DNA from: a bacterium
Lineage (GTDB): Bacteria; Myxococcota_A; UBA9160; SZUA-336
Direction: 5' to 3'
Assembly (NCBI GenBank): GCA_024226335.1
Contig: JAAELY010000545.1
Location: 10,523 to 74,522, forward strand
DNA: 64,000 bases
Shown here: piece after piece, positions 8,293 to 38,803 of the stretch
Position numbering within the stretch: position 1 is the stretch's first letter
Layout: each line of letters starts with the position of its first letter
Translations under genes and position numbers: made by a program
Notes under the pieces: generated by a model
Told to the model about the DNA's origin: nothing
What the model saw: the letters and a program-made list of their open reading frames with translations, nothing else
Databases searched by the model: none

Positions 8293-8306
8293 CGGAGCCT
8301 GTATGT

Positions 8307-8318
8307 TATCAAACGATA
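8307..8318. promoter_or_regulatory. Short inverted repeat TATC-aaac-GATA in the TetR-DUF2249 / hemerythrin divergent region.
   Basis: tatcaaacgata. Confidence 0.15.
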
Positions 8319-8391
8319 TCCAGTCACTCACGGCGTCGAGCGACGCCCCCGCCGTCCCTTCGCTGGGCGGAATTTCCCGAGAGGATCCCCG

Positions 8392-11987: not shown

Positions 11988-12054
11988 CCCGGAGGACGTA
12001 GCACCGCACTAAGGTAGGGACCCATCTCTAGCCAGGTAAAGCGAGGAATTGAAA

Positions 12055-13130: not shown

Positions 13131-14114
<984 letters not shown>

Positions 14115-19589: not shown

Positions 19590-20416
19590 GGTGACCCCTC
19601 CTCCGGGCTATTTACCGCGCCTCCGCCGAAGCGGAGCGCGAAGTGATAGGCATCGCGCGGGCACACCTCGAGGCAGCGCGCGCAGTTCAGACAGTTTCCA
19701 TGGTCGATGAAGCCCCGTTGCTCCATCTCGTCGTAGCGAATGACCTTGGGTTCGGGACAGATGCGGATGCAATCGCCACAGTAATCGCAGCGTTCCTGAG
19801 CGAAACGCACACGCAGCAGCGACCAGCGGCCGACGAGTGAATAGAAGGCGCCGAGCGGGCAGAGTGAGCCGCACCAGCCCGGCCGCAGAACGAACAGGTC
19901 GAGCACGAAGATCCCGGCCACGACCAGCAAACCCAGACCCGGACCGTAGATCAACTCTCGATGAGTCATGGCGATCGGACTCAGCCACTCGAAGGCCGCC
20001 ACTCCGGTGATCGCCGAGACCGGCAACGCCAGAAACATGATCCAATAGCGAACGCTGCTGTCCACATGCAGGCTGCGACGACCGTCTAGACGCGGACGCA
20101 GCCAGGCGGCCAGATCCGTGACTGGATTCAGCGGACAAACCCAGGCGCAAAATCCGCGACCTCCGAATACGTACCAGAAGCCGAGTACCGTCACCGCACC
20201 CAACAACACCGTATTCTTCAGGGTATGACCCGTTGAAAGAATCTGCAGAACGGCGTAGGGGTCGGACAGAGGAAGCGTGCGCAAGACTCGAGAGGCCGAG
20301 AGATTCCCCGTCAGTACGCCGAGGTGCCAATGCGCACCTAGCCAGAACAGAACGAGAATTCCGATCTGGGTCGTTCGCCGGGCAAGTAGGTAGCGGTGCT
20401 TCCGTAGCCAACTCAA
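19586..20416 (-). CDS. napH: NapH, membrane-bound ferredoxin-type quinol dehydrogenase subunit (TTG start).
   Basis: TM helices carry CxxCP (FCAWVCP, WCGSLCP). C-terminal [12 protein letters not shown] and [12 protein letters not shown] are two 4Fe-4S motifs. Confidence 0.8.
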
Positions 20417-21207
20417 GGCCCCTCAATTCCAGAGAGATCATCCATCTGCTCGAGTACGCGCTCGAGACTGTTCTCCCATTGCGGCAGGTCCGGCGCCGTC
20501 TCCGGCGCCTTGAAATCACCACTGATGTCCGTTTCTTCGAGCCAACCGAAGCGATAGTTGTCGCCCAGTTTGCCCCGCGCCTGCTCAACGGGCAGCACCT
20601 TGATCGCAGCCTCTTCGAGTACGCAGACGTGCTCACACTTTCCACAGCCGGTGCAGGCGTCGGAATTGACGACCGGAATGAAGTAGGCGTGCTTGCCCGT
20701 GCGCTCGTTCTGCCGGAACTCCAGGCCGATCGCCTGGCCCATGAGCGGGCAGGCTCGGTAGCAGACCTCACAACGCAGACCCTTGTAGGCCAAACAGTTC
20801 TCGTGGTCGACGAGCACCGCGAGCCCCATCTCGGCCTCTTCGATGGGCGTTCCGGACACGAGTGCATCGGTGGGACAAGCCTCGGTACAAGGCGAATCGG
20901 GGCACATTTCGCACGGTACTTTGCGCGGTTCGAAGTACGGCACGCCGATCGCCTCACCGTCTCCAGCCGTCGCGATCTGCAGCGTATCGTAGGGACAGGC
21001 TTCCACACACTGGGAACACTTGATGCAGCTCGCCAGGAAGGCGGGCTCATCTTGAGCACCAGGAGGACGAGGCGCAGAGACGCTGGCTCGCGACTCACCG
21101 GCGACATGCACCCAGGTCATGCCACCAGTCAGCGCCAGAGCCAGGCTCTGCGGCTTGAAAGCCGCCAGGAAACCCCGGCGGCTGACGTCCTTTGCGGGAA
21201 GGCTCAC
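20413..21207 (-). CDS. napG: NapG, periplasmic 4x[4Fe-4S] ferredoxin-type subunit. Probable GTG start at 21207, right after the napA stop; the track extends it to 21270.
   Basis: Tat motif SRRGFLAAF. Four Cys clusters ([46 protein letters not shown]). Confidence 0.8.
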
Positions 21208-21209
21208 GG

Positions 21210-23810
21210 TCAGGCCTTTCGCACTCTCACAGCGCACTTCTTGTAGTCGGTCTCCTTCGAGATCGGACAAGTCGCATCCAGAGTCAGCTTGTTGATCAAC
21301 ACGTTCTCGTCGAACCAGGGCACGAATACCAGACCTTTCGGTACACGATTGCGACCCTGTGTATCAACGCGCACGCGCACCTTTCCGCGCCGCGACTCCA
21401 TCACGACCTCGTCGTTGCGCTTGATGCCACGCGAGGCCGCATCCTCAGGGTGCATCCAACACACCGCGTAAGGCACCGCACGGTTGAGCTCCGCAACACG
21501 CTTGGTCATCGAACCCGAGTGCCAGTGCTCGAGCACCCGACCCGTGCACAACCACAGGTCATAGCCCTTGTCCGGAATCTCTGCGGCCTCAGCGTAGGGC
21601 CGGAAGAAGATCTTCGCGCGACCCGCCACACTCACCTTCTCACCCTTGAGACTGCCGTTCGGGATCTTCTTCAGCGCCTTGCCGTAGAAGTCGTACCCCT
21701 TGCCGGGCTTCACGTAGGGATCGTAGCCCTCCTTGAAGCGCCACTGCGTCTCGCGCCCATTAACCACCGGCCAACGCAGACCTCGCACCTTGTGATAGGT
21801 ATCGAAATCCGCCAGGTCGTGACCATTGCCGAGACCGAACTCGCGGTACTCGGCCCACAGCGCCTTGTGCACGAAGAATCCCGCCTCCTCGGCCACATCG
21901 TTGGGATGGCCATTGGCAATCGGATCGGGCCAGGCGTGCTTCTTGTATTCGGGCCGCGCGAACAGAACTTCGTACAGCGTCTGTTCGGGGTCGTAGCCCA
22001 TCTTCTTGGCATCTGCGAGCACATCGGGAAGCTTGCCGTCGGGGAAACCGTCGACCTTCAGACCGGGCAGTGGCTGCTCCTTCCACACTTCCTTCAGCTT
22101 GAAGCGCTTCGAGAATTCCATCGTCTGCCAGATATCGGCCTTCGCCTCACCTGGAGCCTTCACCTGCTGACGCCAGTGTTGCGTTCGCCGCTCGGCGTTT
22201 CCGTAGGCGCCCCACTTCTCGTAGATCATGGCCGCTGGCAGGACCAGATCGGCGACCTTGGCCGACACCGTAGGATAGGCATCCGAGACGACGATGAAGT
22301 TATCGCCCTCGCGCGCCGCCTTGACCCACTCGTTGGCGTTGGCGAAGTCCTGGAATGGATTGGTCACCTGCGCCCAGAAAAAGCGCACCTTGCCCGACCG
22401 CAACTGGCGCATCATCTTGACCGCGTGCGTCCCCACCTTGGGGTTGAGCGTCTTCGCGGGCAGATGCCAGAGCTTCTCGCTCTTGGCACGATGGCCACCG
22501 TTGAAAACCACCATGTCCGACGGTAGGCGATGCGCGAAGGTGCCGACCTCGCGCGCGGTACCGCAAGCCGAAGGCTGTCCGGTGAGCGAGAAAGCTCCCG
22601 AACCGGGCGTCGACATCTTGCCACCCAGGAGGTGAATGGCGTAGATCTGCTCGTTCACCCAGGTACCGCGCGAATGCTGGTTGAAACCCATTGTCCAGAA
22701 CGAAATGATCTTCTTCTTGCGATCCGAATACAGATCAGCCAGCTCGATCAGCTTCTCCTTCGACACGCCCGAGATCTTGCTCACGTGCTCGGCCGTGTAG
22801 GGCTCGAGCTGCTTCTTGTACTCCTCGAAACTGATCTTCCAGTGTGCGCCGGCTTTGCCGCGCATCTTCTGGCCTTTCTCGCGCGGGTGGTCGGCAGGCA
22901 ATCCGTAACCGATATCCGTCGGGCCGGTTGCAAACACACAGTGCTTGTCGATGAACTCCTTGTCGATCGCCCCCTTCTTGATCATGTGGCGAGCGATGTA
23001 GTTCATGATCGCCAGGTCGGTCTGCGGCTTGAAGATGATCTCGACGTCCGCGAGATCGCTACAACGATTCCCGTAGGTAGAGAGATTGATGACCTTGGTC
23101 GCGGGCTTGCTGAGCTTGCGATCGGTGACCCGCGACCACAGGATCGGATGGCACTCGGCCATGTTCGCGCCCCAGGTCACGACGGCATCTGTCTGTTCGA
23201 TATCGTCGTAGCAGCCCGGAGGCTCGTCGATACCAAACGTCTGGATGAATCCAGCAACCGCGGACGCCATGCAGTGTCGAGCGTTCGGGTCGAGATTATT
23301 CGAGCGGACGCCCGCCTTCATGAACTTGGCGGCGGCATACCCCTCGTCAATCGTGTATTGGCCAGAGCCGAAGACCGCAACACTCGACGGACCGTACTGG
23401 CCGTAGTACTGCTTGAATTTCTGCTCCATCACGTCGAAGGCCTTGTCCCAGGACACCGGAGTGAAGCGGCCCTTCTTGTCGTACTTGCCATCCTTCATGC
23501 GCAAGAGGGGCTTCGTGAGCCGATCCTCTCCGTACATGATCTTGGCGTTGAAGTAGCCCTTGATGCAGTTGAGACCCCGGTTCACAGGCGATTCAGGGTC
23601 GCCCTTGACCGAAACCACACGGCCCTCCTTGGTGGCCATCATGATTCCGCAACCGACGCCACAGAAGCGGCACACGGACTTGTCCCACTTCCAATCCTTC
23701 TGCAGTTCTGCAGCCTGTGCCCGCGCTTCGGGCGGAATGGAAATTCCGATTCCGGTGGCCACTGAGGCCGCAACCGCCGTCTTGACGAACTCCCGTCGCG
23801 TCTGTGCCAT
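21210..23810 (-). CDS. napA: NapA, periplasmic nitrate reductase catalytic molybdopterin subunit.
   Basis: Tat signal [45 protein letters not shown] is the N-terminal [4Fe-4S] motif. 866 aa. Confidence 0.9.
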
Positions 23811-23910
23811 GGATCCCTCCGTGGTATCGCGCCTTGTTGGCGCGTGCCGTTTTGTCCCTGCATCGGGACGGCGGCCCCAGTTACAGCAAGCCGCGTGCCG
23901 ATCCGTGAGT

Positions 23911-24150
23911 TCAGTCGCCGTCGGGCAGCGTCACGGATTCCGCCATTTCAGCCATCGCCACGTGTTCGAGTTGTTGGATTTCACGAAGGCGATCGGCGCC
24001 CTCACCTCCACTGACGGCTTCGATCGTCACCACAAGACGCCCCACACCGTCGTGGTGGTGTACCTGGGCCCAGGGAAACGCGTTTATTGCGGTAGATACC
24101 TTTTCGAGATTCTCGGGACGACACGCGACGACCACGCCAGAAACATTCAC
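23911..24150 (-). CDS. napD: NapD, NapA maturation chaperone (GTG start).
   Basis: 79 aa, immediately upstream of napA ([13 protein letters not shown]...). GAGG RBS. Confidence 0.65.
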
Positions 24151-25124
24151 GATGCACCTCCGTCCGACACGTCCCAGACCAGCACGCGGGCATCATTGCC
24201 CGCGGACAACAACCTGCGGCCTCCGTCGGTAAAACGTAGCACCTGAACCGGTGCAGTGTGGCGATCTAACACATGCGTGACTCGACCGCTCAGCAAGTCG
24301 ATCACCTTGATCCGATCGCCCTGCAGGGCAATGGCCAGACGCCCGCGCACACGATCAGCCGCCAGCGCCGTAATATAATGATCGTCTCGATAGAGTACGC
24401 GAGGCTCGGAACCGTTCAGGTCCCATACGAGCAGGCGTTTGTCCTTGCTCGCGGTGGCCAGTCGCGTTCCCGATAGCCAGGCCAGTCCGAAGACGCTGTC
24501 GCGGTGCCCGCGCAACACGGACGCCGTCTCTCCATTGGAGATGTCGATCAACTGCACGCGACTCGAGCGAAGCGCCACCGCCATCTGCTTCCCGTTCGGA
24601 CTCATGGCCAGAGCGTAGACCGGATCGTAGTCGAGCTGGCGGCGGAAGCGCTCCTCTCCGGTCGTCACGTCAAACAGGCTGACTTCTCCTGTCATATGGC
24701 CCAGGAAAAGCCGATCGTCGTCGACGAAACGGCAGGTCGTAACTCGAGCCAGTTCGAACTGATGCGTCGTTTCCGGGCGACCGTCAGCAGTGAAACGCCA
24801 GAACCGCAAGCGGTCATCGGAAGCCGCTACTGCGACCCGCGTTCCCGAGGGCGACACAGCGACACAACTCACGGTTGCCGGAAACTCCTTCTCTCCGGCA
24901 TCGATCACGAGCAGAGGAGCAAGCACGCGCTGCCTGCGCCAGTCGAGAACATCTACATGACCGGACTGCGTCGCTACCAGTAGTATCGATTCGCGCAACG
25001 CGCCGTCGAGCACCATGTGGTCTGCGCGCATCTCGGCCTCGAGTTGCGCGTGGGCTGGAGTGGCTAGAAAAAAGGCCGAGAATAGAGCGGCTGCAACACC
25101 GACCCGCGCGTCAGCCGTCCTCAT
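24147..25124 (-). CDS. napL: Periplasmic WD40 beta-propeller protein, NapL-like.
   Basis: Signal peptide (AALFSAFFLATPAHAQ). Repeated WD-like blades (RLLVWD, ARVLVWDV). Embedded in the nap operon, overlapping napD as ATGA. Confidence 0.5.
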   Translation of the reverse strand: MRTADARVGVAAALFSAFFLATPAHAQLEAEMRADHMVLDGALRESILLVATQSGHVDVLDWRRQRVLAPLLVIDAGEKEFPATVSCVAVSPSGTRVAVAASDDRLRFWRFTADGRPETTHQFELARVTTCRFVDDDRLFLGHMTGEVSLFDVTTGEERFRRQLDYDPVYALAMSPNGKQMAVALRSSRVQLIDISNGETASVLRGHRDSVFGLAWLSGTRLATASKDKRLLVWDLNGSEPRVLYRDDHYITALAADRVRGRLAIALQGDRIKVIDLLSGRVTHVLDRHTAPVQVLRFTDGGRRLLSAGNDARVLVWDVSDGGAS

Positions 25125-26334
25125 AGCGGAGTTGACCGTTGTTGATGGCCATTGCGACCTTCACCATGAGCGTGAACAGCAGCGCTCCGATCGACCAGAC
25201 AGCTGCACCAACCATGAGTTCGTTCAGGCTCGGGTTGTAGGCGTAGACCTCACCCAATGCGTCGGGCGTCATACCGGGAAGCAGCAGACCGAGACCCTTC
25301 TCGATGAACACACCCAACACCGCGAGCGCACAACCCAGGTTCAAGACGGCGATGCGGTGGCGCAATACCGGAATTACGAAGATCACAAAGGCCGCGAGGT
25401 TGCTCAGCAGTGCCGTCCAGGTGTAGATGGCGATGTCAGTGCGCTCCGCCGTTCCAAACCACTGGAAGTGTCCGTGGGTCGTGTGGGCCGTTTCGAAGTA
25501 GAACTCCTTGAATACCTCGACGCCCAGGAAGAACAGGTTGACGGCCATCGCGTAGGCCAGCAACTCGCCGATCTTCAGCAGAGCGGTGTCCGTCAGGCGC
25601 ATATGCCCAACACGACGCAGGATCTGGAAGATCAGCACGAGAAGGGCGGGACCCGAGCAAAACGCGCTGGCCAGGAAACGCGGCGCAAGTATGGCCGTGT
25701 GCCAGAACGGCCGCGACGCCAGACCCATGAAGAGGAAGGCCGTCACGGTATGGATGAGGACCGCCAGTGGAATCGACAGGAAGATGACCGGCATGATGAA
25801 GGCGGCGTTGTACTTCTGGCCAAGGAAGCTCTTGTAGAGCAAGTAGGTGACGATGAAGTAGTTGACCAGCAGGTACAACGAGACCACCAGGATGTCCCAT
25901 ACCAATAATGATGATGGGAAATTCGGTTGACCGACCCCGGGCATCAGGTGCCAGATCACTTCGGGTCGGCCGACGTCGACGTTCACGAAGAGAATCGCCA
26001 TCACGATGGCCGCCACAGCCACGAGTTCTCCGACCAGGACCAGTTCCTTGATGGGCCCCCAGTCGTAGATATAGGCGGGTATCACCAGCACGACTGCCGC
26101 GGCTGCCACACCCACGAGAAACGCAAAGTTACCGATGTAGAAGCCCCAGGAAACCTGATCGCGCATGTTCGAGGTGATCAGGCCGTTCTGGAGCTGATTG
26201 GCGTAGGCGAGCCCGCCGACGGCAATCACGACCAGGAGTACGCCGATCCAGGTCCAGTAGCCGGAGTGCCCCCGTGTAACCACGGAGATGCTGCCCTTCA
26301 CGAAGCTCAAGAAATGGAGGAGTACCTGTCTCAT
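25111..26334 (-). CDS. NrfD/PsrC-family polytopic membrane quinol-interacting subunit.
   Basis: ~10 TM, 407 aa. Follows the NrfC-like FeS protein. Confidence 0.65.
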   Translation of the reverse strand: MRQVLLHFLSFVKGSISVVTRGHSGYWTWIGVLLVVIAVGGLAYANQLQNGLITSNMRDQVSWGFYIGNFAFLVGVAAAAVVLVIPAYIYDWGPIKELVLVGELVAVAAIVMAILFVNVDVGRPEVIWHLMPGVGQPNFPSSLLVWDILVVSLYLLVNYFIVTYLLYKSFLGQKYNAAFIMPVIFLSIPLAVLIHTVTAFLFMGLASRPFWHTAILAPRFLASAFCSGPALLVLIFQILRRVGHMRLTDTALLKIGELLAYAMAVNLFFLGVEVFKEFYFETAHTTHGHFQWFGTAERTDIAIYTWTALLSNLAAFVIFVIPVLRHRIAVLNLGCALAVLGVFIEKGLGLLLPGMTPDALGEVYAYNPSLNELMVGAAVWSIGALLFTLMVKVAMAINNGQLRYEDG

Positions 26335-26339
26335 GGCGC

Positions 26340-27272
26340 TTACCCGTAGAAATAGAAGAACTTGGGGTTGGTCTTGAGTTCCGCTTTGAGCACGAAGGTT
26401 CGCTTGTGCTTGAGCAGATATCGGATCTCGCTATTCGGGTCGAGCAGGTTCCCGAACTTGCGCGCGCCAACCGGACAGGCCTCATGGCATGCCGGGTAGC
26501 GTCCCTCGCGCACCCGCTGAATACAGAAGGTGCACTTCTCCACGACACCCCGCGGTCGCGGCCGATTGCCGATGATATGCGTATCGGTATTGATCTCGTC
26601 CTTGGGAATACTCGGCTCACCCCAGTTGAAGTGGCGCGCGCCGTAGGGACATGCGGCCATGCAGTAGCGACAGCCGATGCACCAATCGGAATCGATCACG
26701 ACGATGCCGTCCGCTTCCTTCCACGTCGCTCCAGTCGGGCAAACACTGGTACACGGCGAGTCCTCACAGTGCTGGCAGGCGATCGGGAGATACATCTTGT
26801 CTTCAGCGGGCACTTTTTCGTGGTCGTAATAGGCGTTGCCATGCTCGAGGTCGATGCCGCGTATCATGTCCTCGCGCTCGAACTCGAGCACGCGGATCCA
26901 GTGGATCTCAGGATCGCGGGACTGGTTGTTCTCCGCCACGCATGCATACTCACAGCGTCGACAACCGATACAACGGGATACGTCGAGACCGTAGCCAAAG
27001 ACCACACCGTCGACGGGCCCGGTGGCCTTCACCTTCATGTCGACGCCGAGCTTCTTGGAGTACTTGCGCTCGAGGCGCTCCAACACCTCGGCCAGTTCTT
27101 CGTCGGACATCTCGCGGAAGTGCTTCTGCAGAAAGGTCTCGAAGTCGAAGGCCTGCGCGGCGCCTGGAACGGCCGCCGCGGCGCCAATACCCGCCAGCGA
27201 CGTCTTCAGGAACTCGCGGCGCGAGGCACCGCGTTCTTTGCGCTCTTGCGGCTTCGCGCTAGCTCGCTTCAT
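26340..27272 (-). CDS. NrfC/PsrB/DmsB-like 4x[4Fe-4S] electron-transfer subunit with Tat signal. ATG at 27270-27272.
   Basis: Tat signal SRREFLKTSLAGIGAAAAVPGAAQA. Four clusters: CIGCRRCEYAC, CQHCEDSPCTSVCP, CIGCRYCMAACP, CTFCIQRV...CHEACP. Confidence 0.75.
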   Translation of the reverse strand: MKRASAKPQERKERGASRREFLKTSLAGIGAAAAVPGAAQAFDFETFLQKHFREMSDEELAEVLERLERKYSKKLGVDMKVKATGPVDGVVFGYGLDVSRCIGCRRCEYACVAENNQSRDPEIHWIRVLEFEREDMIRGIDLEHGNAYYDHEKVPAEDKMYLPIACQHCEDSPCTSVCPTGATWKEADGIVVIDSDWCIGCRYCMAACPYGARHFNWGEPSIPKDEINTDTHIIGNRPRPRGVVEKCTFCIQRVREGRYPACHEACPVGARKFGNLLDPNSEIRYLLKHKRTFVLKAELKTNPKFFYFYG

Positions 27273-27900
27273 CGTGCGGCTCCTTGCCGGCGATTGCCTC
27301 CGGCCGGCGTGGTGGGCGCTTCGGCTCGATGGGCTTGAAAGGTGGATTGTGCGGATCGTGGCAGACCACACATGTGCGGTATTCCTTCGGACCCCACCAA
27401 TGCCCCGTGCGCTTGCCGTGCACGCCTGCACGCCAGTCGGGCAACTTCTTGGCGTGGCACTGTGTGCACAGTTTCCACGAGTCTTCGAACGGAATATTCG
27501 TATCGTCGGCTAGACGCAGTTTCTGCCGATCCCGCGGATTCGGATTGTGGCAGCTGTAGCACCAGAGATTGCCGTGCGCGAAATCCAGTTCGTCGTGCTC
27601 GTCCTCCAACTCGCGCACATCGCGCTCTGGGAGATCGCTCGACTCGTGGCAATCCGAGCACGGCAGGTAGTCGTCGGCGATTTCGGGTGCAGCGAGAAGA
27701 ACGGGTTCGGGCTCGGGCGGCAACGTGCGACTTGCCGATGGGCGCGGAGTGTCGGGATCGAAATCGGTCTGCACCGAGAAGAGCACGAACGCCAGAAGCA
27801 CTGCCCCGCTGATCACAGCCCAGGTCGCCATCTGGTGTGGAGGGGGCGCCCACTCCCCCTCGACTTCTTCTCCCGGTTGACCGGAGTCACCTTCCGCCAT
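27259..27900 (-). CDS. Membrane-anchored tetraheme cytochrome c (NapC/NirT/NrfH-like).
   Basis: One N-terminal TM helix (WAVISGAVLLAFVLFSV). Four CXXCH motifs: CSDCH, CYSCH, CTQCH, CVVCH. Confidence 0.7.
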   Translation of the reverse strand: MAEGDSGQPGEEVEGEWAPPPHQMATWAVISGAVLLAFVLFSVQTDFDPDTPRPSASRTLPPEPEPVLLAAPEIADDYLPCSDCHESSDLPERDVRELEDEHDELDFAHGNLWCYSCHNPNPRDRQKLRLADDTNIPFEDSWKLCTQCHAKKLPDWRAGVHGKRTGHWWGPKEYRTCVVCHDPHNPPFKPIEPKRPPRRPEAIAGKEPHDEAS

Positions 27901-27902
27901 GA

Positions 27903-28511
27903 CTACTCAGGGTCGTCTGCCGTCGGGTCGTAACCCTCGGGCACAGGGTGGGCGATCTTCTTCAAAGCCTCTTCGTAGTCGAAGCCCGATTTGCCGCCGT
28001 CGGAGCAACTGTAGCGTTCAGGATCCCAGGCTGGACTTTCGTCGTTGTGGCAGGCGACGCAGACCTTCTCGCTCTGTTCGACCAGACCCTTCGAGAGCGC
28101 CTTGTCTCGGTCGATCATGACCTTCTTCTTGCGATAGTCCTTGCCCGCACCGTGGCAGGATTCGCACTGCACACCGGCGGTGCGAACGAACTTGCGCGAT
28201 ACCATCTCATCGGGCACGCCGTGGGCCGTCACGTGGCACTTCACGCATTCGTCGGCCTTCTGGGGATCTCCGAGACCCTTCTCAGTGGCCCACTTGCGAG
28301 CCTTGTCACTCGCAAGCGTCTCGAACGCCTTGCTATGCAGTGAATCCTTCCACCAGGCGTACTGATCTCCGATGGCTTCTTTCTCGTGACAGGACTTGCA
28401 CTTCTTCACGCCGACAAACTTGTGGTCTTTGGCTTGAACGGATCCCGGACCAACAACCAACAACATCGAAAATACCAGCAGAAAAAGAGTCATTACGCGC
28501 AAGCCAATCAC
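27903..28511 (-). CDS. Periplasmic tetraheme cytochrome c.
   Basis: Signal peptide. Four CXXCH motifs: CKSCH, CVKCH, CESCH, CVACH. Confidence 0.7.
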   Translation of the reverse strand: MIGLRVMTLFLLVFSMLLVVGPGSVQAKDHKFVGVKKCKSCHEKEAIGDQYAWWKDSLHSKAFETLASDKARKWATEKGLGDPQKADECVKCHVTAHGVPDEMVSRKFVRTAGVQCESCHGAGKDYRKKKVMIDRDKALSKGLVEQSEKVCVACHNDESPAWDPERYSCSDGGKSGFDYEEALKKIAHPVPEGYDPTADDPE

Positions 28512-30392: not shown

Positions 30393-30788
30393 CTAGCCCA
30401 CGTCTGCGAGTGTGGTCGTTGAGGCCCACGAACGGAAGGCTTCACTCATCTGGACCCAGGCCGGATGCAATGGGCAGGGATCGCTCGGGTCACACGCACC
30501 CCAACCGAAAACACACCGGTCGTCACCGGGATAAGCGTCGACCGCAGCCAGGATTTCTGTAAAGGGAATCTCCGACGGTGGACGCGCCAGCTCGAAGCCC
30601 CCTCCCACTCCTTTGTAAGACTCGAGCACCCCGGCCACGACGAGACGTCGGAGAATTTTGGCCAGATACGGCGCGGGAATGCCCGTCTCATTGGAGAGAT
30701 CGCGAGCGCGGACCGGCGTCTCGTCGGGATTCGCCGCGAGCCAGGCCGCTGCGCGAAGAGCGTATTCGGCTGTCTGTGACAGGACCAT
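30393..30788 (-). CDS. nsrR: Rrf2-family transcriptional regulator, NsrR-like NO sensor.
   Basis: N-terminal wHTH (TAEYALRAAAWLA..). Three-Cys cluster CVFGWGACDPSDPCPLH. Upstream of nirS and divergent from the nnrS-like gene. Confidence 0.75.
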   Translation of the reverse strand: MVLSQTAEYALRAAAWLAANPDETPVRARDLSNETGIPAPYLAKILRRLVVAGVLESYKGVGGGFELARPPSEIPFTEILAAVDAYPGDDRCVFGWGACDPSDPCPLHPAWVQMSEAFRSWASTTTLADVG

Positions 30789-30889: not shown

Positions 30890-30961
30890 TCCTGGTGGAC
30901 CAACGGATCTGAAGGTCCACTATCCCCCCCATGGATCATCGCAGGCGAGGAGGCTCGAGGA

Positions 30962-32404
30962 ATGTCCGCGTCCGGAAGCATGCCGCAACCGGAAGAGTCG
31001 CCCGTCGCACGCCTGTGGCTGGGACTCTCCCTGTTGGTGCTGGTCTTCGCGGGCCTGTTTGCGCTGGCCGTGGTCGTCGCTCGAACGCCACCGTTCGACC
31101 GCCTGGTGACCGATCCACTGTTCTTCAAACGATGCCTGGCCGCGCACGTAAACCTGGCCCTGGTCGCGTGGTTCTACTCCTTCCTGGCCGGCCTGCTCTT
31201 CCTGCTTCCGGGACGCGAACGCCCCGGGTGGCTGGCGAGGCACTCGGTCCATATCGCTGGCACGGGCATCGCCCTTTTACTCGTCGGCGCGTCCATGCCC
31301 GGCGGTCGCCCCGTACTCGCGAACTACATCCCGAGCATCGACCATCCACTTTTCCGCACGGGTCAGTTCCTGTTCGGCCTGGGCGTTCTCACCAGCTTGT
31401 TCGACCGTCGGTTGTTCTGGGCGCGCGATGCGGTATCGGGCCCCCTGCAACTTTCGGATGCATGTATCGCGGGCCTGCGGGTTGCCGCACTCGGACTGTT
31501 GCTGGCGTTGCTTACTTTCGGTCTCTCCGCCCTGAGCCTTCCGGCGGGACTCGACCCCGATGCGCGCTGGGACTTGCTGGTATGGGGCGGGGGCCACGTT
31601 CTTCAGCTGGTTTGTGTAATCGCAATGCTCTCGGTCTGGCTGCTGTTGCTCACACCGGTACTGGGCAGACCCCCGGTCAGCGGCCGGGGCGCGACCTGGA
31701 TCTTCGGCGCGATGCTCATGCCCTGGACCCTGGGCCTGCTCTTCCTGCTTCAGGGAACCGGGAGTCCGGCCTATCGGACCGGCTTCACCTCGCTGATGCA
31801 GTGGGGAATCTTCCCGCCCGTACTGGTGTTTCTGGCACTGTGCGGACGCGCGTTGGTACTCGCCGTGCGCGAGCAGCGCATCGGCCGACGAGCTTTCGGC
31901 GATCTGCGCATATCGGCCTTCCTGGTGAGTGCTGCACTCACCTTGGTGGGCTTCGCCCTCGGTGCCTCGATCCGCGGATCGAACACGATGGTACCGGCGC
32001 ACTATCACGCCTCGGTCGGTGCGGTGACGGTGGCCTTCATGGCGGCCGCCTACCCGATACTCGCCTGCTTTGGGCTGGCACTTCCCACTGCGCGGATGCG
32101 CAAAGCCGCGGCCTGGCAGCCGCTATTGTACGGTGGGGGTATGCTAGTGTTCGCAGCCGGTTTTGCGCTTGCGGGCGCCTACGGCATGGGCCGAAAGGTC
32201 TATGGCGCCGAACAGGCAGCGCGAGGGCTGGCCGAGTCGGTGGGGCTGGGCTTGATGGGGTTTGGCGGCTTGATCGCAATTGTCGGGGGAATGCTTTTCC
32301 TCGTCGTGGTCGCCAACGCCTGGTGGCGCGGCATCGAATCGGATGAACCGATTACTCTTCACCTGGGACGGAGGTGGCGCTTTGGAAACGAAGAACACGG
32401 ATGA
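30962..32404 (+). CDS. 12-TM membrane protein, NnrS-like (heme/copper membrane protein of NO-responsive regulons). Assignment tentative.
   Basis: 12 predicted TM helices. Intramembrane His in TM2, TM3 and TM6, plus HYH in TM10. GAGGAGG RBS before the ATG at 30962. Divergent from the Rrf2 gene. Confidence 0.45.
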   Translation: MSASGSMPQPEESPVARLWLGLSLLVLVFAGLFALAVVVARTPPFDRLVTDPLFFKRCLAAHVNLALVAWFYSFLAGLLFLLPGRERPGWLARHSVHIAGTGIALLLVGASMPGGRPVLANYIPSIDHPLFRTGQFLFGLGVLTSLFDRRLFWARDAVSGPLQLSDACIAGLRVAALGLLLALLTFGLSALSLPAGLDPDARWDLLVWGGGHVLQLVCVIAMLSVWLLLLTPVLGRPPVSGRGATWIFGAMLMPWTLGLLFLLQGTGSPAYRTGFTSLMQWGIFPPVLVFLALCGRALVLAVREQRIGRRAFGDLRISAFLVSAALTLVGFALGASIRGSNTMVPAHYHASVGAVTVAFMAAAYPILACFGLALPTARMRKAAAWQPLLYGGGMLVFAAGFALAGAYGMGRKVYGAEQAARGLAESVGLGLMGFGGLIAIVGGMLFLVVVANAWWRGIESDEPITLHLGRRWRFGNEEHG

Positions 32405-32427
32405 AAAGCATCCCATTCAACGGCTCA

Positions 32428-32537
32428 TGGACAACCCGTGGCTACTACTCGTGCTGGGAGTCTTGATCCCGACCGTGTCCTACACGATCTGGGGCTGGAT
32501 CGAGTTACTGAGCACGCCTGCGGCCACACTACCGTGA
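32428..32537 (+). CDS. Candidate 36-aa single-TM peptide, possibly an oxidase subunit IIa analogue.
   Basis: MDNPWLLLVLGVLIPTVSYTIWGWIELLSTPAATLP lies directly upstream of the one-TM CuA subunit II. The RBS is weak. Confidence 0.3.
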
Positions 32538-32559
32538 CGGTCCGGCAAGGGAGAACGAT

Positions 32560-33087
32560 ATGAGTATCCATCAGCCACCGGCTGACTGGTTCAAGGCACC
32601 GGACAGCACCGAGCGCCTGTGGGTGGGACTCGCGTTGATCTGGTGCCTGGTGATGTTCATCGCCATGCCGTACTGGTATTTTTACGGCAAGCAGAACAGC
32701 GTCGGTGAGGGGTACCTCGTCGAGCCGATGGAGTTCAGCCAGCGTGTCAGCAAGTTCGTAGAGACCAATAAGGTCGGCGAATTGAAGGGCATTCCGATCG
32801 TCGAGGCGGCGCCGGGAGGCGACGTCTATCTACAGGCGATGATGTGGAGCTGGTTCCCGGTCATCCAGATGCGCAAGGATCAAACCTACCGTCTGCACAT
32901 CTCGTCGTTGGACCTGCAACACGGCTTCTCGATACAGCCGCTCAACATGAACTTCCAGATCCTGCCCGGCTACGACCACGTACTGACCATCACGCCGACG
33001 AGTGCCGGCGAATTTTCGATCGTATGCAACGAGTTCTGCGGTATCGGGCACCACCTGATGACCGGCCGCATTCTCGTCGTCGAGTAG
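32560..33087 (+). CDS. Heme-copper oxidase superfamily subunit II, single TM plus a cupredoxin CuA domain (B-family / NOR-like).
   Basis: DLQHGFSI followed by CNEFCGIGHHLM gives the H...CxExCGxxHxxM CuA ligand set. 175 aa with one TM helix. Confidence 0.8.
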   Translation: MSIHQPPADWFKAPDSTERLWVGLALIWCLVMFIAMPYWYFYGKQNSVGEGYLVEPMEFSQRVSKFVETNKVGELKGIPIVEAAPGGDVYLQAMMWSWFPVIQMRKDQTYRLHISSLDLQHGFSIQPLNMNFQILPGYDHVLTITPTSAGEFSIVCNEFCGIGHHLMTGRILVVE

Positions 33088-33108
33088 GAGAGGCCGCGAT
33101 GACCACGA

Positions 33109-34847
33109 CGACCATCGGAGACGTCCCGTTCGAAGGCGGGGCTTCGGGAAACCACCAGGGCGCAGTCCGCAGTTGCGATACAACGGGCCTGCCCGTCTGC
33201 CTGGGCGCACAGCGCTTCATCAAGCTTCACGCAGTAGTCGCCGTCGTGTGGCTACTCATCGGCGGCACCGCCGCCATCCTGATCGCACTCACGCGTTGGC
33301 CGGCCGTGCATCTGCTCCCCGCAGACTGGTACTACCGGCTTCTGACACTGCACGGTCTCGACATGCTGATCTTCATGATCTTGAACTTCGAGATCGCGAT
33401 CCTGTATTTCGCAGGCACGACGTTGCTGAATTGCCGACTAGCATCGACCAAGGCCGCCTGGCTCGCTTTCGCGCTGATGCTGATCGGCGGCATCATGGTG
33501 AATATCGCGGTACTGAACGGCAGTAGCGATGTGCTGTTGACGTCGTACGTGCCCCTCAAGGCCAGCCCCTGGTTCTACCTGGGCATCATCCTCCTGGCCG
33601 TGGGTGCGCTGGTCGCAGTAATCAACTTCTTGGCCACGCTCTATATCGCGAAGCGAGACCACACCTACGAGGGTTCGGTGCCGCTCGTGGTATTTGGCGC
33701 GACGGCTGCCGCCATCATCGCAGTCGTGACCCTCTTGCACGGCGCGGTCGTGATGATCCCGACCTGGCTGTGGTCGATGGGCGTGGTCGAGTACATCGAT
33801 CCGGCCTGGTACCGCATAACCTGGTGGGCACTGGGCCATATGTCCCAGCAGATCAACGTATGCGCAATGGTCTCGGTCTGGTATCTGCTGGGGACACTGA
33901 CTGTAGGAGCTCAGCCGGTAAGTCAGCTCGTGTGCCGGGGCGCTTTCGTGCTCTACATCTTGTTCATCAACGTGGCTTCGGCCCACCACATCCTGGTCGA
34001 TCCGGCCGTGGGCGCAAGCTGGAAGATCTGGAACACCGGTTACGCCATGTACCTGGCCGTACTGGCTTCGATGATCCACGGCCTGACCGTACCGGCCTCG
34101 ATCGAGGTCGCCCAGCGCAAGAAGGGCTTCAACCGCGGTCTGTTCGGCTGGCTGGTGGCAGCTCCGTGGAGCAACCCGGGTTTCTCGGGTTTCTTCCTTT
34201 CGCTGATCATTTTCGGCTTCGGCGGCGGCATCACCGGAGTCGTGCTGGGCACGCAACAGATCAACATCATGGCGCACAACACACTGCGCATTCCCGGGCA
34301 CTTCCACGTGACCGTCGTAGGCGGTACGGCACTGGCTTTCATGGCAGTCACCTACTATGTGGTGCCCCTGATTTTCCAGCGCGAGTTCTACCTGAAGACC
34401 TGGTGCCGCATCCAGCCGTGGCTGTTCGGCGGCGGTATCACCCTGATGTCGATCGGCATGTCGTTCGCAGGTTCCTACGGGGTCCCGCGCCGGCACTGGG
34501 ACATGGAGTTCACAGGGGCCATGTTCTCGACCGGATTCGACTCGGGCGCACACCTGATGCTGGGCTTGATGGGAGTGGGTGCGATCATCGCAGTCACCGG
34601 CCTGTTGGTATTCGTCCTGCTCGTGGTCGCGGCCGTATTCTTCGGCCGCTCGAACGCGGGCCGCGCGATGACACCGTGGCACGAGGAACGGCAGGTCGCC
34701 GAGAAGTTCCGCACCGAAGACACAGCCGGAGATGACGAACACAGCATGCCGGGAACTCTTGTACTGGCACTGTTCTTCCTGGCCTGCTTCGTCGTGTACT
34801 ACTTCGCCAACTGGATGTGGCTGGCCGACGTCTGGCACGTGCGCTGA
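33109..34847 (+). CDS. Heme-copper oxidase superfamily subunit I, B-family-like. The helix VI Tyr is replaced by Gln (candidate eNOR-type NO reductase).
   Basis: TM2 LTLHGLDMLIFM (heme His). Helix VI WWALGHMSQQ aligns to WFFGHPEVY (His kept, Tyr replaced by Gln). Helix VII ASAHHILV (the HH pair). Helix X IPGHFHVTVVGG (HxH). RBS GAGG before the ATG at 33109. Confidence 0.75.
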
Positions 34848-34863
34848 TCGTGGAGAAACGACG

Positions 34864-35784
34864 ATGGAACGGATCACGCGCTTCGTAACGGGGGGCGGGC
34901 TACCCGCCTTTGCGCTGCCACTGCTGGTCTTCTATCAGGGGTTGCTGGTCGCTCTCCTGTTCACGCCACCCGCGGCGACGGGGCTGGGTGCGTTCGCTGA
35001 GGATTTCCGTCTCTGGTGTTTCGGTTACGACCCGTCGACGGGCAATCTGAGATGGGGCCCGGTTGTGGCCATGCTCCTACCACCACTGGTGCTGGGCGTG
35101 GCCTTTCTGGTTTTCTGGTGGAAACAGCTGGGCGAGATGGCGATGCGACCGATGACGCTGATCCGACCGGCCGCACTCGCGGCCAGCCTGGTCATTGCCG
35201 CCGCTTTCGTCTTCTCCCTGCTAGGCGGCAGCAGCCCGCAGGCGGGCGACCTGAGTTTTCCGGCAGACGCATTGCGCACGAGTTTCAAACCGCCCGAGAT
35301 CTCGCTGACCAGCCACACAGGGGAACCCGTCGACCTGGCACGATTGAAAGGCAAGGTCGTCCTGGTGACGGCTGTCTACGCCAGTTGCCCGCACACCTGC
35401 CCGCTGATCCTGACCCAGGCAAAAAAAGCCATCGCCGAACTGGATCCCACTGAGCGCCGAGATCTGCACGTGATCGGCGTGACCATCGACCCCTCCAACG
35501 ACAGCCCGGAAGTACTCGCCGAGCTGGCCGAGATGCACGACCTGACACCCCCTCTTTACAACCTGGTGACCGGTGACACCGCGGAAGTAGAGCGGGTTCT
35601 CGACGATCTCGGCGTCGCCAGGCAGTACAACGAAGAAACTGGACAGATCGACCACGCCAATCTCTTCGTTCTGGTGGACCGAAGCGGTCGCATCGCGTAC
35701 CGCTTCTCGCTTGGAGAGAACCAGCAGCGCTGGCTGGTTTCGGGCCTGCGCGTGCTACTGCACGAGCCCGGAAACCTTGGCTGA
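34864..35784 (+). CDS. SCO1/SenC-family copper chaperone with an N-terminal multi-TM membrane domain.
   Basis: Thioredoxin-like domain with CPHTCP (Cx3CP). 3-4 N-terminal TM helices. RBS GGAGAAA. Confidence 0.7.
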   Translation: MERITRFVTGGGLPAFALPLLVFYQGLLVALLFTPPAATGLGAFAEDFRLWCFGYDPSTGNLRWGPVVAMLLPPLVLGVAFLVFWWKQLGEMAMRPMTLIRPAALAASLVIAAAFVFSLLGGSSPQAGDLSFPADALRTSFKPPEISLTSHTGEPVDLARLKGKVVLVTAVYASCPHTCPLILTQAKKAIAELDPTERRDLHVIGVTIDPSNDSPEVLAELAEMHDLTPPLYNLVTGDTAEVERVLDDLGVARQYNEETGQIDHANLFVLVDRSGRIAYRFSLGENQQRWLVSGLRVLLHEPGNLG

Positions 35785-37834
35785 GCAGGCTCCGTCGCTA
35801 GGGCAACCCGTCCGCGCACACGGGGTCCTGGAACGACTCGAACGCGGTTTTCTGTACCTGGATCGACTGGTTGAGACGTTCCTCCCCCGATCGCTGAACG
35901 CCCTGCACCACACCGGCGCGATCGCAATCACCGCTCTTTTTGTCGCCACCGTCACGGGCGTGCTGCTGTTGCTCTGGTACCGACCGAGCGTCCACATGTC
36001 CTACTCATCGGTCGCGGCCATGTCGAGTCATCCTTGGACCGCCGGACTGATGCGCTCGCTGCACCGCTATAGCTCCGACGCCTGCGTTTTCTTCGTGCTG
36101 ATCCACTTCCTGCGCGTACTTTTTGAAGGGCGCTTTGCGGGGGCGCGCTGGTTGGCCTGGGTCACCGGGGTGATCACCGTCGGTTTTCTGGAGGTCGTCG
36201 GCTGGAGTGGTTACTGGCTGGTCTGGGATGCTCGCGCCCAGCACATTGCGACCGGCACGGCGCGCATGCTCGACGTACTGCCGATCGTGGTAGACCCGAT
36301 GGGGCGCTCCTTCCTGTTCGACGAAGCGGTCAACTCCCTGCTCTTCTTCGTCGTCTTCTTCATCCACATGCTGGTTCCAATCAGCCTCGCGATCGGCCTT
36401 TGGCTGCACCTGACACGTGTGAGTCGCTCGCGATTCGTCACCGAAACTCCGATGACGATCTGGACCCTGGGCCTTTTGATGCTGCTCTCGGTGGCCTATC
36501 CGGCGACGAATGCTCCTATCGCCGACCTGACCGCACTCGGGCAGAGCTTCACCATGGACTGGTGGTACCTGATGCCGCTCGCGTTCACCGACCGCTTATC
36601 CGGAGGCGCACTCTGGTCACTGGCGCTCGTGGTCGGTCCGGTGCTCGGCACCTTCCCCTGGTGGATGACCCGAGGCAAACCGAAACCCGCACGCGTCGAC
36701 CCCGCGCGCTGCAATGAGTGCCTGCAGTGTTACAACGATTGCCCCTTCGAGGCGATCACGATGATCCCCCGCACCGAAGCCAACCCGCGCTACGCCCTCC
36801 AGGCCGACGTGAATCCCGCGCGCTGCGTAGGTTGCGGAATCTGCTCGGGTTCCTGTGACTCCATCGCGATCGACCTGGACTGGTTCAACATCCGCGAACA
36901 GCGCAAGAAGATCGAAGGATGGCTGGCTGAAGCCGCAGAAAGGGACGAAAAGATCGATATCGCCGTCACCTGCACGAGTTCTGCGGGCGGCCTCCTTTCG
37001 ATCGACCGCGAAACCGGCGTTTGCAGCGAATTGCCGGGCTACCGCGTGCTCGAGGCACCGTGTGCGGGCTGGCTGCATCCCCTTACGCTCGAGCGAGCAC
37101 TGCGTCGCGGCGCCGATCGCGCGATCATCATCGGCTGTGGCGGAGAGTGCCACTATCGCGAGGGCACCGACTGGCTGAATCTTCGCCTGTCGGGGGAGCG
37201 CAATCCGACGCTGCGCACGCAATTCGTGGAGCGTGAGCGCATTTCCACGCTGTTCTTCGACCGCACGCGCAAAGCCGAGATGATTCGGGTCGCGAACACG
37301 CTTCACGACGATGGAACACGCGCGGCATCGAAACCCCTTTCGACTTTGCGCATGGGCCTGGCGTTCGTCACTACCGCCGTTATTACCGCGATGATCATCG
37401 GGTTGGTGAGCGATCTCAATTACTCCGCGCCGCAGGCCGATGGCTCGCAGCTCGTCGTTACGTTCAAACACCCCGGGCAGATGAGTGAAGACTGCCACGA
37501 ACTCTCGGAGGAAGAGAAGGCTGCGCTTCCCGTGCATATGCGCCTGGAGAAGATCTGCGACCGGGGACGCTCGGATGTGCGCCTGGCCGTGTACCTGGAT
37601 GGCGCATCCGTCCTGGAACGCGCCTACCCACCTGCGGGTTTCTGGGGCGATCTCAACAGCCTCGCTATCGAGGAGATCAACGTGAAACCGGGCGAACATC
37701 TCGTTGGCGTAAAGATCGGGGACAGCCGCGATCCCGATGAGTGGACCTTCGTCGCAGAGCGCAAACTGACTTTCGGCCTGGATAAGCGCGAAGTGGTCGC
37801 ATTCGACCGGCTCGCCGGTTTCAAGTGGTACTGA
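35777..37834 (+). CDS. Fusion protein: diheme cytochrome b (bc1/b6-type 4-helix core), then a 2x[4Fe-4S] ferredoxin domain, then an MvhD/FlpD-like domain, then a TM helix and a ~170-aa C-terminal domain. The start is uncertain: TTG 35777 or ATG 35711.
   Basis: Helix B LHRYSSDACVFFVLIH and helix D IHMLVPISLAIGLWLH are both H-x13-H. CNECLQCYNDCP and CVGCGICSGSCD are ferredoxin clusters. RAIIIGCGGECHYREGTDW is the MvhD-like CHY..G motif. A TM follows (LAFVTTAVITAMIIGLV). Confidence 0.65.
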   Translation: MAEQAPSLGQPVRAHGVLERLERGFLYLDRLVETFLPRSLNALHHTGAIAITALFVATVTGVLLLLWYRPSVHMSYSSVAAMSSHPWTAGLMRSLHRYSSDACVFFVLIHFLRVLFEGRFAGARWLAWVTGVITVGFLEVVGWSGYWLVWDARAQHIATGTARMLDVLPIVVDPMGRSFLFDEAVNSLLFFVVFFIHMLVPISLAIGLWLHLTRVSRSRFVTETPMTIWTLGLLMLLSVAYPATNAPIADLTALGQSFTMDWWYLMPLAFTDRLSGGALWSLALVVGPVLGTFPWWMTRGKPKPARVDPARCNECLQCYNDCPFEAITMIPRTEANPRYALQADVNPARCVGCGICSGSCDSIAIDLDWFNIREQRKKIEGWLAEAAERDEKIDIAVTCTSSAGGLLSIDRETGVCSELPGYRVLEAPCAGWLHPLTLERALRRGADRAIIIGCGGECHYREGTDWLNLRLSGERNPTLRTQFVERERISTLFFDRTRKAEMIRVANTLHDDGTRAASKPLSTLRMGLAFVTTAVITAMIIGLVSDLNYSAPQADGSQLVVTFKHPGQMSEDCHELSEEEKAALPVHMRLEKICDRGRSDVRLAVYLDGASVLERAYPPAGFWGDLNSLAIEEINVKPGEHLVGVKIGDSRDPDEWTFVAERKLTFGLDKREVVAFDRLAGFKWY

Positions 37835-37873
37835 CAAACTCGGTAGAATCCCTGCGGATTCGGCCGAGCCTCA

Positions 37874-38803
37874 TTGACTGAGTTTTCAGGAGCAACCATG
37901 ACGGTCGTGGACCCGGGCATCGCGCTGACTTCGAAAAGGACCTGGTCCGATCGGGCTCGCGCCTACTTCTCCCTCACACGCCCCCGTCTGCTGCCGCTCG
38001 TCTTGTTGACGGGGCCTGCGGCAATGATGCTCGGGAGCGCGTGGCCGGGAGCGGGCACGGCGACGGCGATCGTCGTGGCTACGGGCCTGCTGACCGGCGC
38101 TGCCGGTACTCTCAATGCCTGGTACGAGCGCGACCGGGACGCACTCATGGAGCGCACACGCGACCGCGCGCTACCGGCTCAGCGGATCTCCCCTCGGAGC
38201 GCACTCTGTTTCGGGCTGTTGCTAGCGACACTCGGGCTCGTGCTCGTTGGCGCCGCCGGTGGCTGGCTTGCCTTCGCAATCGGCCTGGCCGCCCTGCTCC
38301 ACTATCTGCTCGTCTACACCGTCTGGCTGAAACCGCGAACTCCGCTCGCGGTGGTCGTGGGAGGGATCTCGGGAGCGATCTCTCCACTGGTTGCGGGCGC
38401 AGCCGCTTCTGGCCAGATCGACCTCTGGAGCCTGGGACTGTTTGCGATCGTATTCGTGTGGCAGCCACCCCATTTCTGGGCAATCGCCCTGTATCGCCGC
38501 GATGAATACGCCAAAGCTGGATTCCCGGTATTGCCCAGCGCAATCGGGGCCCGCGCCACCCGCTGGCACCAACTCGCCTGGGCTCTCGCGTTGATTCCGG
38601 TGACGCTGATTCCCTGGCTGATCGGCCCGCTCGGTTTTGGTTACCTCGTCACAGCCGTGGCCGGCGGAACCTTCTTCTGCCTGCGCATCATTCAGGCTAT
38701 GCGCTGTAATTCGAAGACAGCCGATCGAGCGGTCTTCGCGGCTTCGCTTCTCTACCTGACCGGCTTGTTCGCGGTACTCACTCTCGAACTCGTGTGGGCC
38801 TGA
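37874..38803 (+). CDS. ctaB: Protoheme IX farnesyltransferase (heme O synthase).
   Basis: UbiA-family motif NAWYERDRDALMERTRDRALP. Nine TM helices. Confidence 0.8.
   Translation: MTEFSGATMTVVDPGIALTSKRTWSDRARAYFSLTRPRLLPLVLLTGPAAMMLGSAWPGAGTATAIVVATGLLTGAAGTLNAWYERDRDALMERTRDRALPAQRISPRSALCFGLLLATLGLVLVGAAGGWLAFAIGLAALLHYLLVYTVWLKPRTPLAVVVGGISGAISPLVAGAAASGQIDLWSLGLFAIVFVWQPPHFWAIALYRRDEYAKAGFPVLPSAIGARATRWHQLAWALALIPVTLIPWLIGPLGFGYLVTAVAGGTFFCLRIIQAMRCNSKTADRAVFAASLLYLTGLFAVLTLELVWA

Follow-up and report, generated by a model that had tools for sequence, protein, structure and literature searches.

Does an operon that databases file under cytochrome c oxidase reduce oxygen, or does it reduce nitric oxide (NO)? 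The question is raised by a stretch of 64,000 nucleotides, here called the window, which covers positions 10,523 to 74,522 of the forward strand of contig JAAELY010000545.1 (GenBank assembly GCA_024226335.1), from a bacterium of the lineage Myxococcota_A, UBA9160, SZUA-336. All coordinates below are those of the window. Its middle part encodes a B-family-like heme-copper oxidase in which the active-site tyrosine is replaced by glutamine. An earlier interpretation made from the letters alone (the sequence-only reading) had proposed a CuA-type NO reductase (NOR). We are rather confident that the locus indeed encodes an eNOR-type NO reductase, a typical member of a described family that derives from B-family oxygen reductases. 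Much of the ground has been covered before: the eNOR family was published in 2008 and its biochemistry in 2024, and its diagnostic residue as well as the accessory genes of its operon (a 2026 preprint) are also on record.

The catalytic subunit I is encoded at 33099-34847 on the plus strand (Pfam COX1, E=1e-63). The sequence-only reading had the end at 34847 right; the start it gave, 33109, is out of frame, and the in-frame ATG at 33099 is preceded by a GGAGAGG ribosome-binding site. By sequence, the nearest solved structures are the ba3 oxidases of Thermus thermophilus (E about 1e-39). The AlphaFold model (pLDDT, the predicted local confidence, 77) likewise finds its best Foldseek matches among B-family oxidases (E about 4e-18, template-modelling score, TM, about 0.75), and no eNOR structure was among the solved entries that the sequence and fold searches with subunit I matched. 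Residues were mapped in a 56-sequence alignment numbered on ba3 and in a pairwise alignment to T. thermophilus ba3. Both bear out that all six His ligands are kept: H72, H233, H282/H283 and H384/H386 of ba3 correspond to H85, H247, H296/H297 and H401/H403. They also bear out the claim that Gln has taken the place of the cross-linked Tyr. Where ba3 reads G-H233-P-I-V-Y237, subunit I reads G-H247-M-S-Q-Q251; Y237 thus aligns with Q251, and V236 with Q250. The Gln is found in 19/19 sampled members of the clade, and the motif GHxxQQ in 214/217 close database homologs, which makes it a fixed property of the lineage and not a one-off. Most polar positions of the K-channel persist as well and are conserved in the clade: Y248, S261, S309 and T315 of ba3 are Y262, S275, S324 and T330 here, the second being S or N among clade members. 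T312 has become H327, and Y244 has become V258.

Could the lost Tyr have been replaced from elsewhere in the protein? In C-family enzymes it would be sought six residues before the HH pair of helix VII; according to the alignment, this position is Ile290 in subunit I. Y286 was considered as a migrated catalytic Tyr and rejected: the Tyr-retaining sister group (see below) has Y286 too, and the residue can therefore not compensate for the loss. Structural models of these NOR families do not show a migrated Tyr either (Murali et al. 2024, PMC11214002).

A Gln at the position of the cross-linked Tyr is the diagnostic of the eNOR family, after Hemp and Gennis 2008 (PMC8756737, Methods and Table A4). 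The site is occupied by Tyr in oxygen reductases, by Asn in sNOR and by Glu in cNOR and qNOR (PMC8756737). The sequence-only reading had made the same assignment of Gln to eNOR, correctly. The purified eNOR of Rhodothermus marinus reduces NO, not O2 (Murali et al. 2024, PMC11214002). The enzymes of this family have CuA subunits and B-family-like K-channel residues, including the equivalent of Ser309 (PMC11214002); in some of them His/Lys serve as ligands to the low-spin heme (Murali et al. 2024, PMC11214002). In the published picture, the neighbour of eNOR is a family of Tyr-bearing oxidases named “K” (bioRxiv 592808).

The metagenomic clade to which the window protein belongs is large and tightly conserved. 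Among named organisms, subunit I of the window is 52% identical to a protein encoded on a Defluviimonas plasmid, 43-46% to those of Thermomicrobium roseum, 44% to those of T. thermophilus megaplasmids and 39% to that of the haloarchaeal Natrarchaeobius. In a distance tree (neighbour-joining, 100 bootstraps), all GHxxQQ sequences are monophyletic with 99% bootstrap: the window clade, Natrarchaeobius, the Thermus megaplasmid protein, T. roseum and Defluviimonas. The window protein's own clade reaches 100%. Sister to the Gln-type clade are GHxxQY proteins of archaea, which have retained the Tyr (the union has 71% support), and the classical B-family lies outside. This topology agrees with the published one of eNOR beside the “K” family. 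Such an alignment and phylogeny had been suggested by the sequence-only reading, which had named a place among Tyr-bearing B-family oxidases, together with a compensating Tyr elsewhere, e.g., in helix VII as in the C-family, as the signature of an oxygen reductase. The outcome was a different one: the Gln-bearing clade stands apart from the Tyr-bearing B-family oxidases with the said 99%, and the helix VII position is an Ile.

Other memberships can be dismissed from the residues. A B-family O2 reductase would read GHPxVY instead of GHMSQQ and would fall within the Tyr-bearing clade. For sNOR or bNOR, residue 251 should be Asn and not Gln; moreover, sNOR lacks the Ser309 equivalent, which is present as Ser324. 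In gNOR one metal-binding His is replaced by Asp and subunit II is devoid of CuA (PMC11214002), while here all three metal His and the CuA ligands are present. Sites of the nNOR, cNOR or qNOR type are characterized by a Glu ligand and HxWVE in helix VI, in nNOR also by a His/Met low-spin heme; the window protein has GHMSQQ and His/His. Matches on Deinococcus and Geobacillus plasmids were tried as sNOR references and rejected. They are ordinary B-family oxidases, since they read GHxxVY and cluster with ba3.

The homolog searches also brought up two observations on relatives. The Gln-type subunit I of T. thermophilus megaplasmids (L083 8983-10668, TF24 plasmid pTF24b and others) reads H-F-K in helix X, Lys replacing the second low-spin His, which is the His/Lys ligation described for some eNORs (PMC11214002); its gene is annotated as ba3-type oxidase and adjoins nirS and an Rrf2 gene. 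A distant oxidase-like group (P0173, P0178, P0198, P0214, P0230, P0269) has F-H-x-x-H-Y in helix VI, and Tyr replaces both the first His of helix VII (LYH) and the high-spin heme His of helix X (YxH). It matched no nameable family.

Subunit II, encoded at 32560-33087 (plus strand; Pfam COX2, E=2e-5), consists of one transmembrane helix and a cupredoxin domain on the periplasmic side, which houses a binuclear CuA site. The complete ligand set that had been claimed for it stands the comparison with the solved CuA domain of ba3: the ligands (H...CNEFCGIGHHLM; H, C, C, H, M) match residue by residue (E=1e-12). Subunit II is thus, as far as its ligands tell, the electron entry point. Upstream of it, at 32343-32537 on the plus strand, a small single-helix membrane protein is encoded, whose conserved core begins near 32427; in an identical NCBI contig it is annotated as a gene of 64 residues. 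The motif LDNPWLLL...P..Y..WG is common to this small open reading frame (ORF) and to those preceding subunit II in Defluviimonas, Thermus and Thermomicrobium. The protein is a candidate for a third subunit; with subunit IIa of ba3 it is compared by position and size alone. The last transmembrane helix of subunit I (window 34690-34847; PGTLVL...NWMWLADVWHVR) is a separate gene of 42-47 residues in two distant eNOR clusters, where it follows subunit I (L089 5709-5852 and L091 3004-3132). Judged from the sequences, two genes have been fused, or one has been split, within the eNOR family.

The operon is larger than the sequence-only reading had it. It spans 30962-38803 on the plus strand in the order HCOx (explained below), small subunit, subunit II, subunit I, Sco, a cytochrome b/Fe-S/FlpD fusion and heme O synthase. 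Synteny was sampled in the best 80 of 530 relatives, all of them sequences from metagenome-assembled genomes (MAGs) with a 65-79% identical subunit I, and loci were counted where the flank suffices. The 80 MAGs are labelled Myxococcota/Deltaproteobacteria, Leptospiraceae, Planctomycetota, Verrucomicrobia, Calditrichota, Balneolaceae and Acidobacteria. The first six genes of the operon are syntenic in 65-74 related genomes: HCOx lies immediately upstream in 65/65 loci, the small protein is present in 71/72, subunit II in 74/74, Sco in 73/73 and the cytochrome b fusion in 67/67. Heme O synthase follows directly downstream in 32/62 loci, and an Rrf2 gene lies divergently upstream of HCOx in 30/61.

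HCOx, the product of the first gene (30962-32404, plus strand), is a divergent paralogue of heme-copper oxidase subunit I, 480 residues long. The gene had been taken as nnrS-like; this was a mistake, for it has no NnrS match and is recognized by Pfam COX1 (E=4e-12, residues 16-418). NCBIfam yielded zero matches. A sequence search against solved structures came out empty, and among these the protein was placed by fold search alone; its AlphaFold model (pLDDT 85.9) matches best, in the PDB, subunit I of ba3 (TM about 0.7). Databases contain about 900 members of the HCOx family, most of them under the label “hypothetical”. The family motifs are a His in helix II, a His followed by Gln in helix VI (GHVLQ), H-Y-H in helix X and an R-K pair; invariant are H62, H212, Q215, H347-Y-H349 and R411-K412, and a helix VII HH pair is missing. 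As both heme ligand sets are kept and both helix VII His of the CuB/FeB site are absent, HCOx should, by its sequence, bind two hemes without being able to hold the three-His metal. More distant HCOx relatives also adjoin Gln-type subunit I genes, in a different order. HCOx is probably the “eNOR scaffold protein” of Ferrigenium straubiae, a KEGG K02274-like hypothetical protein, the orthology being judged by annotation alone. In the respective preprint the scaffold protein is a hypothetical one, its function is left unassigned and its KEGG label is cytochrome c oxidase subunit I (bioRxiv 10.64898/2026.01.22.701106).

That Sco and heme O synthase genes follow subunit I had been seen correctly; a long gene between the two had gone unmentioned. 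The Sco1/SenC copper chaperone (34864-35784, plus strand; Pfam SCO1-SenC, E=3e-23) has a CPHTC motif and an N-terminal membrane region, and probably matures the CuA site. The intervening gene (35777-37834, plus strand; start according to the NCBI annotation of the identical contig) encodes a fusion protein of 685 residues (Pfam Cytochrome_B, E=8e-18; FlpD, E=5e-10; Fer4). It comprises a di-heme cytochrome b, a 2x[4Fe-4S] ferredoxin, an FlpD/MvhD-like domain, one more helix and a C-terminal domain of about 150 residues, which has conserved Cys and His and is predicted to be periplasmic because of the helix count. Conserved are also H96/H110/H197/H211, spaced by 14 residues, two CxxCxxCxxxC motifs and, within the FlpD part, four Cys. 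The fusion is encoded in the Defluviimonas plasmid cluster, too. It is a candidate for an electron-input or redox-maturation module. The last gene of the operon, at 37874-38803 on the plus strand (NCBI start 37898), encodes heme O synthase (CyoE/CtaB; NCBIfam TIGR01473, 246 bits versus a cut-off of 210).

Divergently from the operon, at 30393-30788 on the minus strand, an Rrf2-family regulator is encoded (Pfam Rrf2, E=4e-28; NCBIfam rrf2_super above cut-off), and nirS lies downstream of it on the same strand. The sequence-only reading had called this pair nsrR-nirS. Both genes are there, an Rrf2 gene and nirS; the identity with NsrR is plausible, the match to the NsrR model being weak (29.8 bits, cut-off 182). 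The cluster ligands of the regulator are arranged as C-x6-C-x5-C-x2-H, and it is a candidate NO or redox sensor. The Rrf2-HCOx intergenic region of 173 bp contains an imperfect palindrome, CAACGGATCTGAAGGTCCACTA, at 30901-30922, about 40 bp upstream of HCOx. Comparing intergenic regions by eye yielded the consensus CAAyGGAy-N6-rTCCrTTG, which with up to 3 mismatches occurs in 24/33 homologous Rrf2/HCOx intergenic regions (among them those of L019, L024, L029, L039, L068, L072 and L081); shuffles gave a mean of 0.24 and a maximum of 2. The copy in the window has 2 mismatches and is the window's best match, yet alone it is not significant; its weight comes from position and conservation. It is likely the operator of the Rrf2 regulator, as predicted from these sequences. 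Some intergenic regions, e.g., L029 and L068, contain two or three copies. A simple 7-1-7 palindrome in the same intergenic region of the window, TGCTACTGTAGCA, was discarded for want of conservation among relatives; a consensus scan for promoters and terminators produced nothing above chance. With nirS placed behind the Rrf2 gene on the minus strand, the genes for NO production and NO consumption, nirS and the eNOR operon, may be under shared control from a single divergent region.

The window as a whole is a full denitrification island with qNOR, heme d1 biosynthesis genes, napA/napB, nirS, the eNOR operon and clade II nosZ. The operon indeed lies between nirS and nosZ, as had been stated: nirS is found upstream, and downstream lie a Sec-type (clade II) nosZ, genes for cytochromes c and others of the nosDGHFLY type, identified by their Pfam domains and their order. 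The island encodes several c-type cytochromes. The qNOR that had been noticed at 1-2241 is real, its place being 3-2255 on the minus strand, where it runs off the window edge; its helix VI is of the HMWVE type.

Some neighbours deserve a remark. On the minus strand, 19071-28511 encodes napB and napA, then a WD40 beta-propeller protein, an NrfD-like membrane protein and a four-cluster Fe-S protein, as well as two multiheme cytochromes (one of them c554-like) adjoining nirS, an unusual quinol-dehydrogenase arrangement for Nap/NirS. A c554-like gene adjoins nirS also in L005, L006, L010 and L021. The stretch that separates qNOR from the heme d1 genes contains two genes for AurF-like di-iron oxygenases, an ORF for a TetR/DUF2249 fusion and a gene for a nitronate monooxygenase (2506-3603 minus, 12049-13011 plus, 7159-8736 minus and 13143-14114 plus); they may be linked to N-oxide stress. 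An ORF of 445 residues at 5825-7162 (minus strand) has the codon bias typical of window genes and zero Pfam matches at E<=1e-5.

How would such an enzyme work? The following scheme builds on the residue pattern, clade membership, subunit composition, synteny and operator conservation as observed; we infer which metal is the non-heme one, where protons and electrons come from, and what HCOx and the cytochrome b/Fe-S protein do. A periplasmic carrier would donate electrons to CuA of subunit II, from where they would pass to the low-spin heme (His85/His403) and on to the high-spin heme (His401). Three histidines, His247, His296 and His297, would hold a non-heme metal adjacent to the latter, and there two NO would be reduced to N2O (2 NO + 2 e− + 2 H+ → N2O + H2O). 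The redox-active His-Tyr cofactor that four-electron reduction of O2 requires would be absent, Gln251 standing in its place, and Gln250 and Gln251 would line the site. The protons would probably come from the cytoplasm via an analogue of the K-channel (Tyr262, Ser275, Ser324, His327, Thr330), and because they do so, NO reduction would be electrogenic, unlike that by cNOR. Sco and heme O synthase would mature the cofactors, and the Rrf2 regulator, acting at the palindrome, would probably switch on the operon together with nirS.

Several facts weigh against the assignment to eNOR and are best considered together. The tree was built without references for R. marinus, sNOR, gNOR, nNOR and bNOR. 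The enzyme of R. marinus DSM 4252 was not among the listed matches of the searches with the window protein, the alignment-based genome search or the Balneolaceae-seeded search; in consequence, the link to it rests on published family features and on the other named eNOR-type sequences. It is homology with this enzyme from which NO reductase activity of the window protein, and likewise of its whole clade, is predicted. The hemes of eNOR are of the a-type (As). Many eNOR operons carry the heme A synthase CtaA (PMC11214002), which was detected neither in the operon studied here nor in any scanned ORF of the window; with heme O synthase lacking this companion, the heme type may differ. The organism already has a qNOR, and a second NOR would have no obvious physiological need to meet; several NOR families per genome are common, for unclear reasons (Murali et al. 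2024, PMC11214002). Finally, Y315 at the top of helix VIII is, by the alignment, invariant in the Gln-bearing clade and absent in its relatives. Such a conserved, clade-specific Tyr is what a B-family-like oxygen reductase with its Tyr elsewhere, or one working without the cross-linked Tyr, might display, and the closest solved structures as well as the database label of subunit I point to the same side. To this idea we give almost no credence. All known O2-reducing heme-copper oxidases require the His-Tyr cofactor, O2 is not reduced by the eNOR of R. marinus (PMC11214002), the modelled NOR families are free of a migrated Tyr (PMC11214002), the C-family position is not a Tyr, and subunit I falls outside the Tyr-bearing clades.

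If eNOR it is, its job might still be another one than respiration: it could scavenge or detoxify NO in microoxia beside a respiratory qNOR, or act on other small N- or O-species. The qNOR of the window, the frequency of multiple NOR families, the low turnover of R. marinus eNOR (0.68 NO per second; PMC11214002) and an Rrf2-type regulator with operator, which would suit a stress-response circuit, make this conceivable. We nevertheless consider it unlikely in view of an operon that is embedded between nirS and nosZ and shares its divergent promoter region with the Rrf2-nirS unit, and of an eNOR in Ferrigenium that is expressed most strongly under denitrifying growth (bioRxiv 10.64898/2026.01.22.701106). 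A further idea concerns the partners. That HCOx, as a heme-only NO-binding or gating site or as an electron relay, and the cytochrome b fusion, as a link to the quinol pool or a cytoplasmic donor, are working subunits of an NO-reducing supercomplex is, in our opinion, doubtful; if true, it would make the widespread eNOR clade an energy-conserving module of NO respiration independent of bc1 and cytochrome c. A larger complex that contains both proteins as stoichiometric redox subunits and takes electrons from a quinol or cytoplasmic donor, instead of or beside cytochrome c via CuA, appears quite improbable. That subunits I and II stand in unbroken synteny with HCOx, Sco and the cytochrome b fusion speaks for it, as do the association of distant HCOx relatives with Gln-type subunit I genes, the two heme ligand sets of HCOx, the four heme-ligand His and three Fe-S motifs of the fusion, and the Ferrigenium homologs, which were detected in the proteome and for which a supercomplex was proposed (bioRxiv 10.64898/2026.01.22.701106). 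Purified R. marinus eNOR, however, is active with tetramethyl-p-phenylenediamine (TMPD)/ascorbate (PMC11214002), the eNOR clusters of Thermus and Thermomicrobium have neither HCOx nor the cytochrome b fusion, the CuA site of subunit II is complete, and synteny alone would fit assembly factors equally well.

With an eNOR-type NO reductase as the preferred reading, what is gained? No new category is opened. To recognize eNOR genes, however, corrects a common annotation error: a protein 100% identical to subunit I in the NCBI MAG GCA_024449685.1 is labelled “cytochrome c oxidase subunit I”. In an uncultured bacterium with mostly Myxococcota MAGs as its nearest relatives, a complete nap-nirS-nor-nosZ island would include two NO reductases of different structure, one of them possibly electrogenic. 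By-products are a six-gene module strictly conserved under the labels of several phyla, a candidate Rrf2 operator, and cultured or plasmid-borne carriers of the genes for the HCOx “scaffold” and the cytochrome b/Fe-S fusion; a close homolog of subunit I is found in the cultured Fodinibius halophilus, and the 52% identical one on the Defluviimonas plasmid. The residual interest lies in these strictly co-inherited partners.

The closest known system is the eNOR family as represented by R. marinus. The window enzyme shares with it the Gln for Tyr, the six His, the CuA-bearing subunit II and a B-type K-channel including the Ser309 equivalent, and also the B-family-like derivation, the location in a denitrification cluster and the routine misannotation as cytochrome c oxidase. 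Within the family, differences are seen. The window clade is 39-52% identical to the named eNOR-type sequences compared (haloarchaeal, Thermus, Thermomicrobium, Defluviimonas). Unlike many eNOR operons, that of the window is devoid of CtaA; its low-spin heme has His/His ligands, in contrast to His/Lys in Thermus, and the extra C-terminal helix is fused to subunit I, whereas some relatives encode it in a separate small gene.

The operon of F. straubiae is similar in content: eNOR II, eNOR I, heme o synthase, Sco1, the scaffold protein and cytochrome b/Fe-S (bioRxiv 10.64898/2026.01.22.701106). The preprint calls this gene set very common, reports that the proteins were detected in the proteome, and finds eNOR I/II to be the most abundant transcripts of the oxidase family under denitrifying conditions (bioRxiv 10.64898/2026.01.22.701106). 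The gene order differs, as the window has the subunit-I-like paralogue first and heme O synthase last. Also, the window has a single cytochrome b fusion with an FlpD domain, where Ferrigenium straubiae has FAD/NADH domains, the two being compared by annotation alone.

With the ba3 oxidase of T. thermophilus (B-family, PDB 1EHK/3S8F) the window enzyme has in common the fold, the six His, a CuA subunit II, a small third subunit (a candidate one in the window) encoded upstream and a single K-type channel. It departs from ba3 by Tyr237 to Gln, Val236 to Gln, Tyr244 to Val, Thr312 to His and Trp239 to Asn at an overall identity of about 25%, and by its expected substrate, which by analogy would be NO and not O2. 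The sNOR of ammonia oxidisers (norSY-senC-orf1), finally, is likewise a CuA-type, B-family-derived NOR candidate, encoded in an operon with Sco/SenC and a further ORF. It has, however, Asn at the Tyr position and misses the Ser309 equivalent, in contrast to the Gln and the retained Ser of the window protein.

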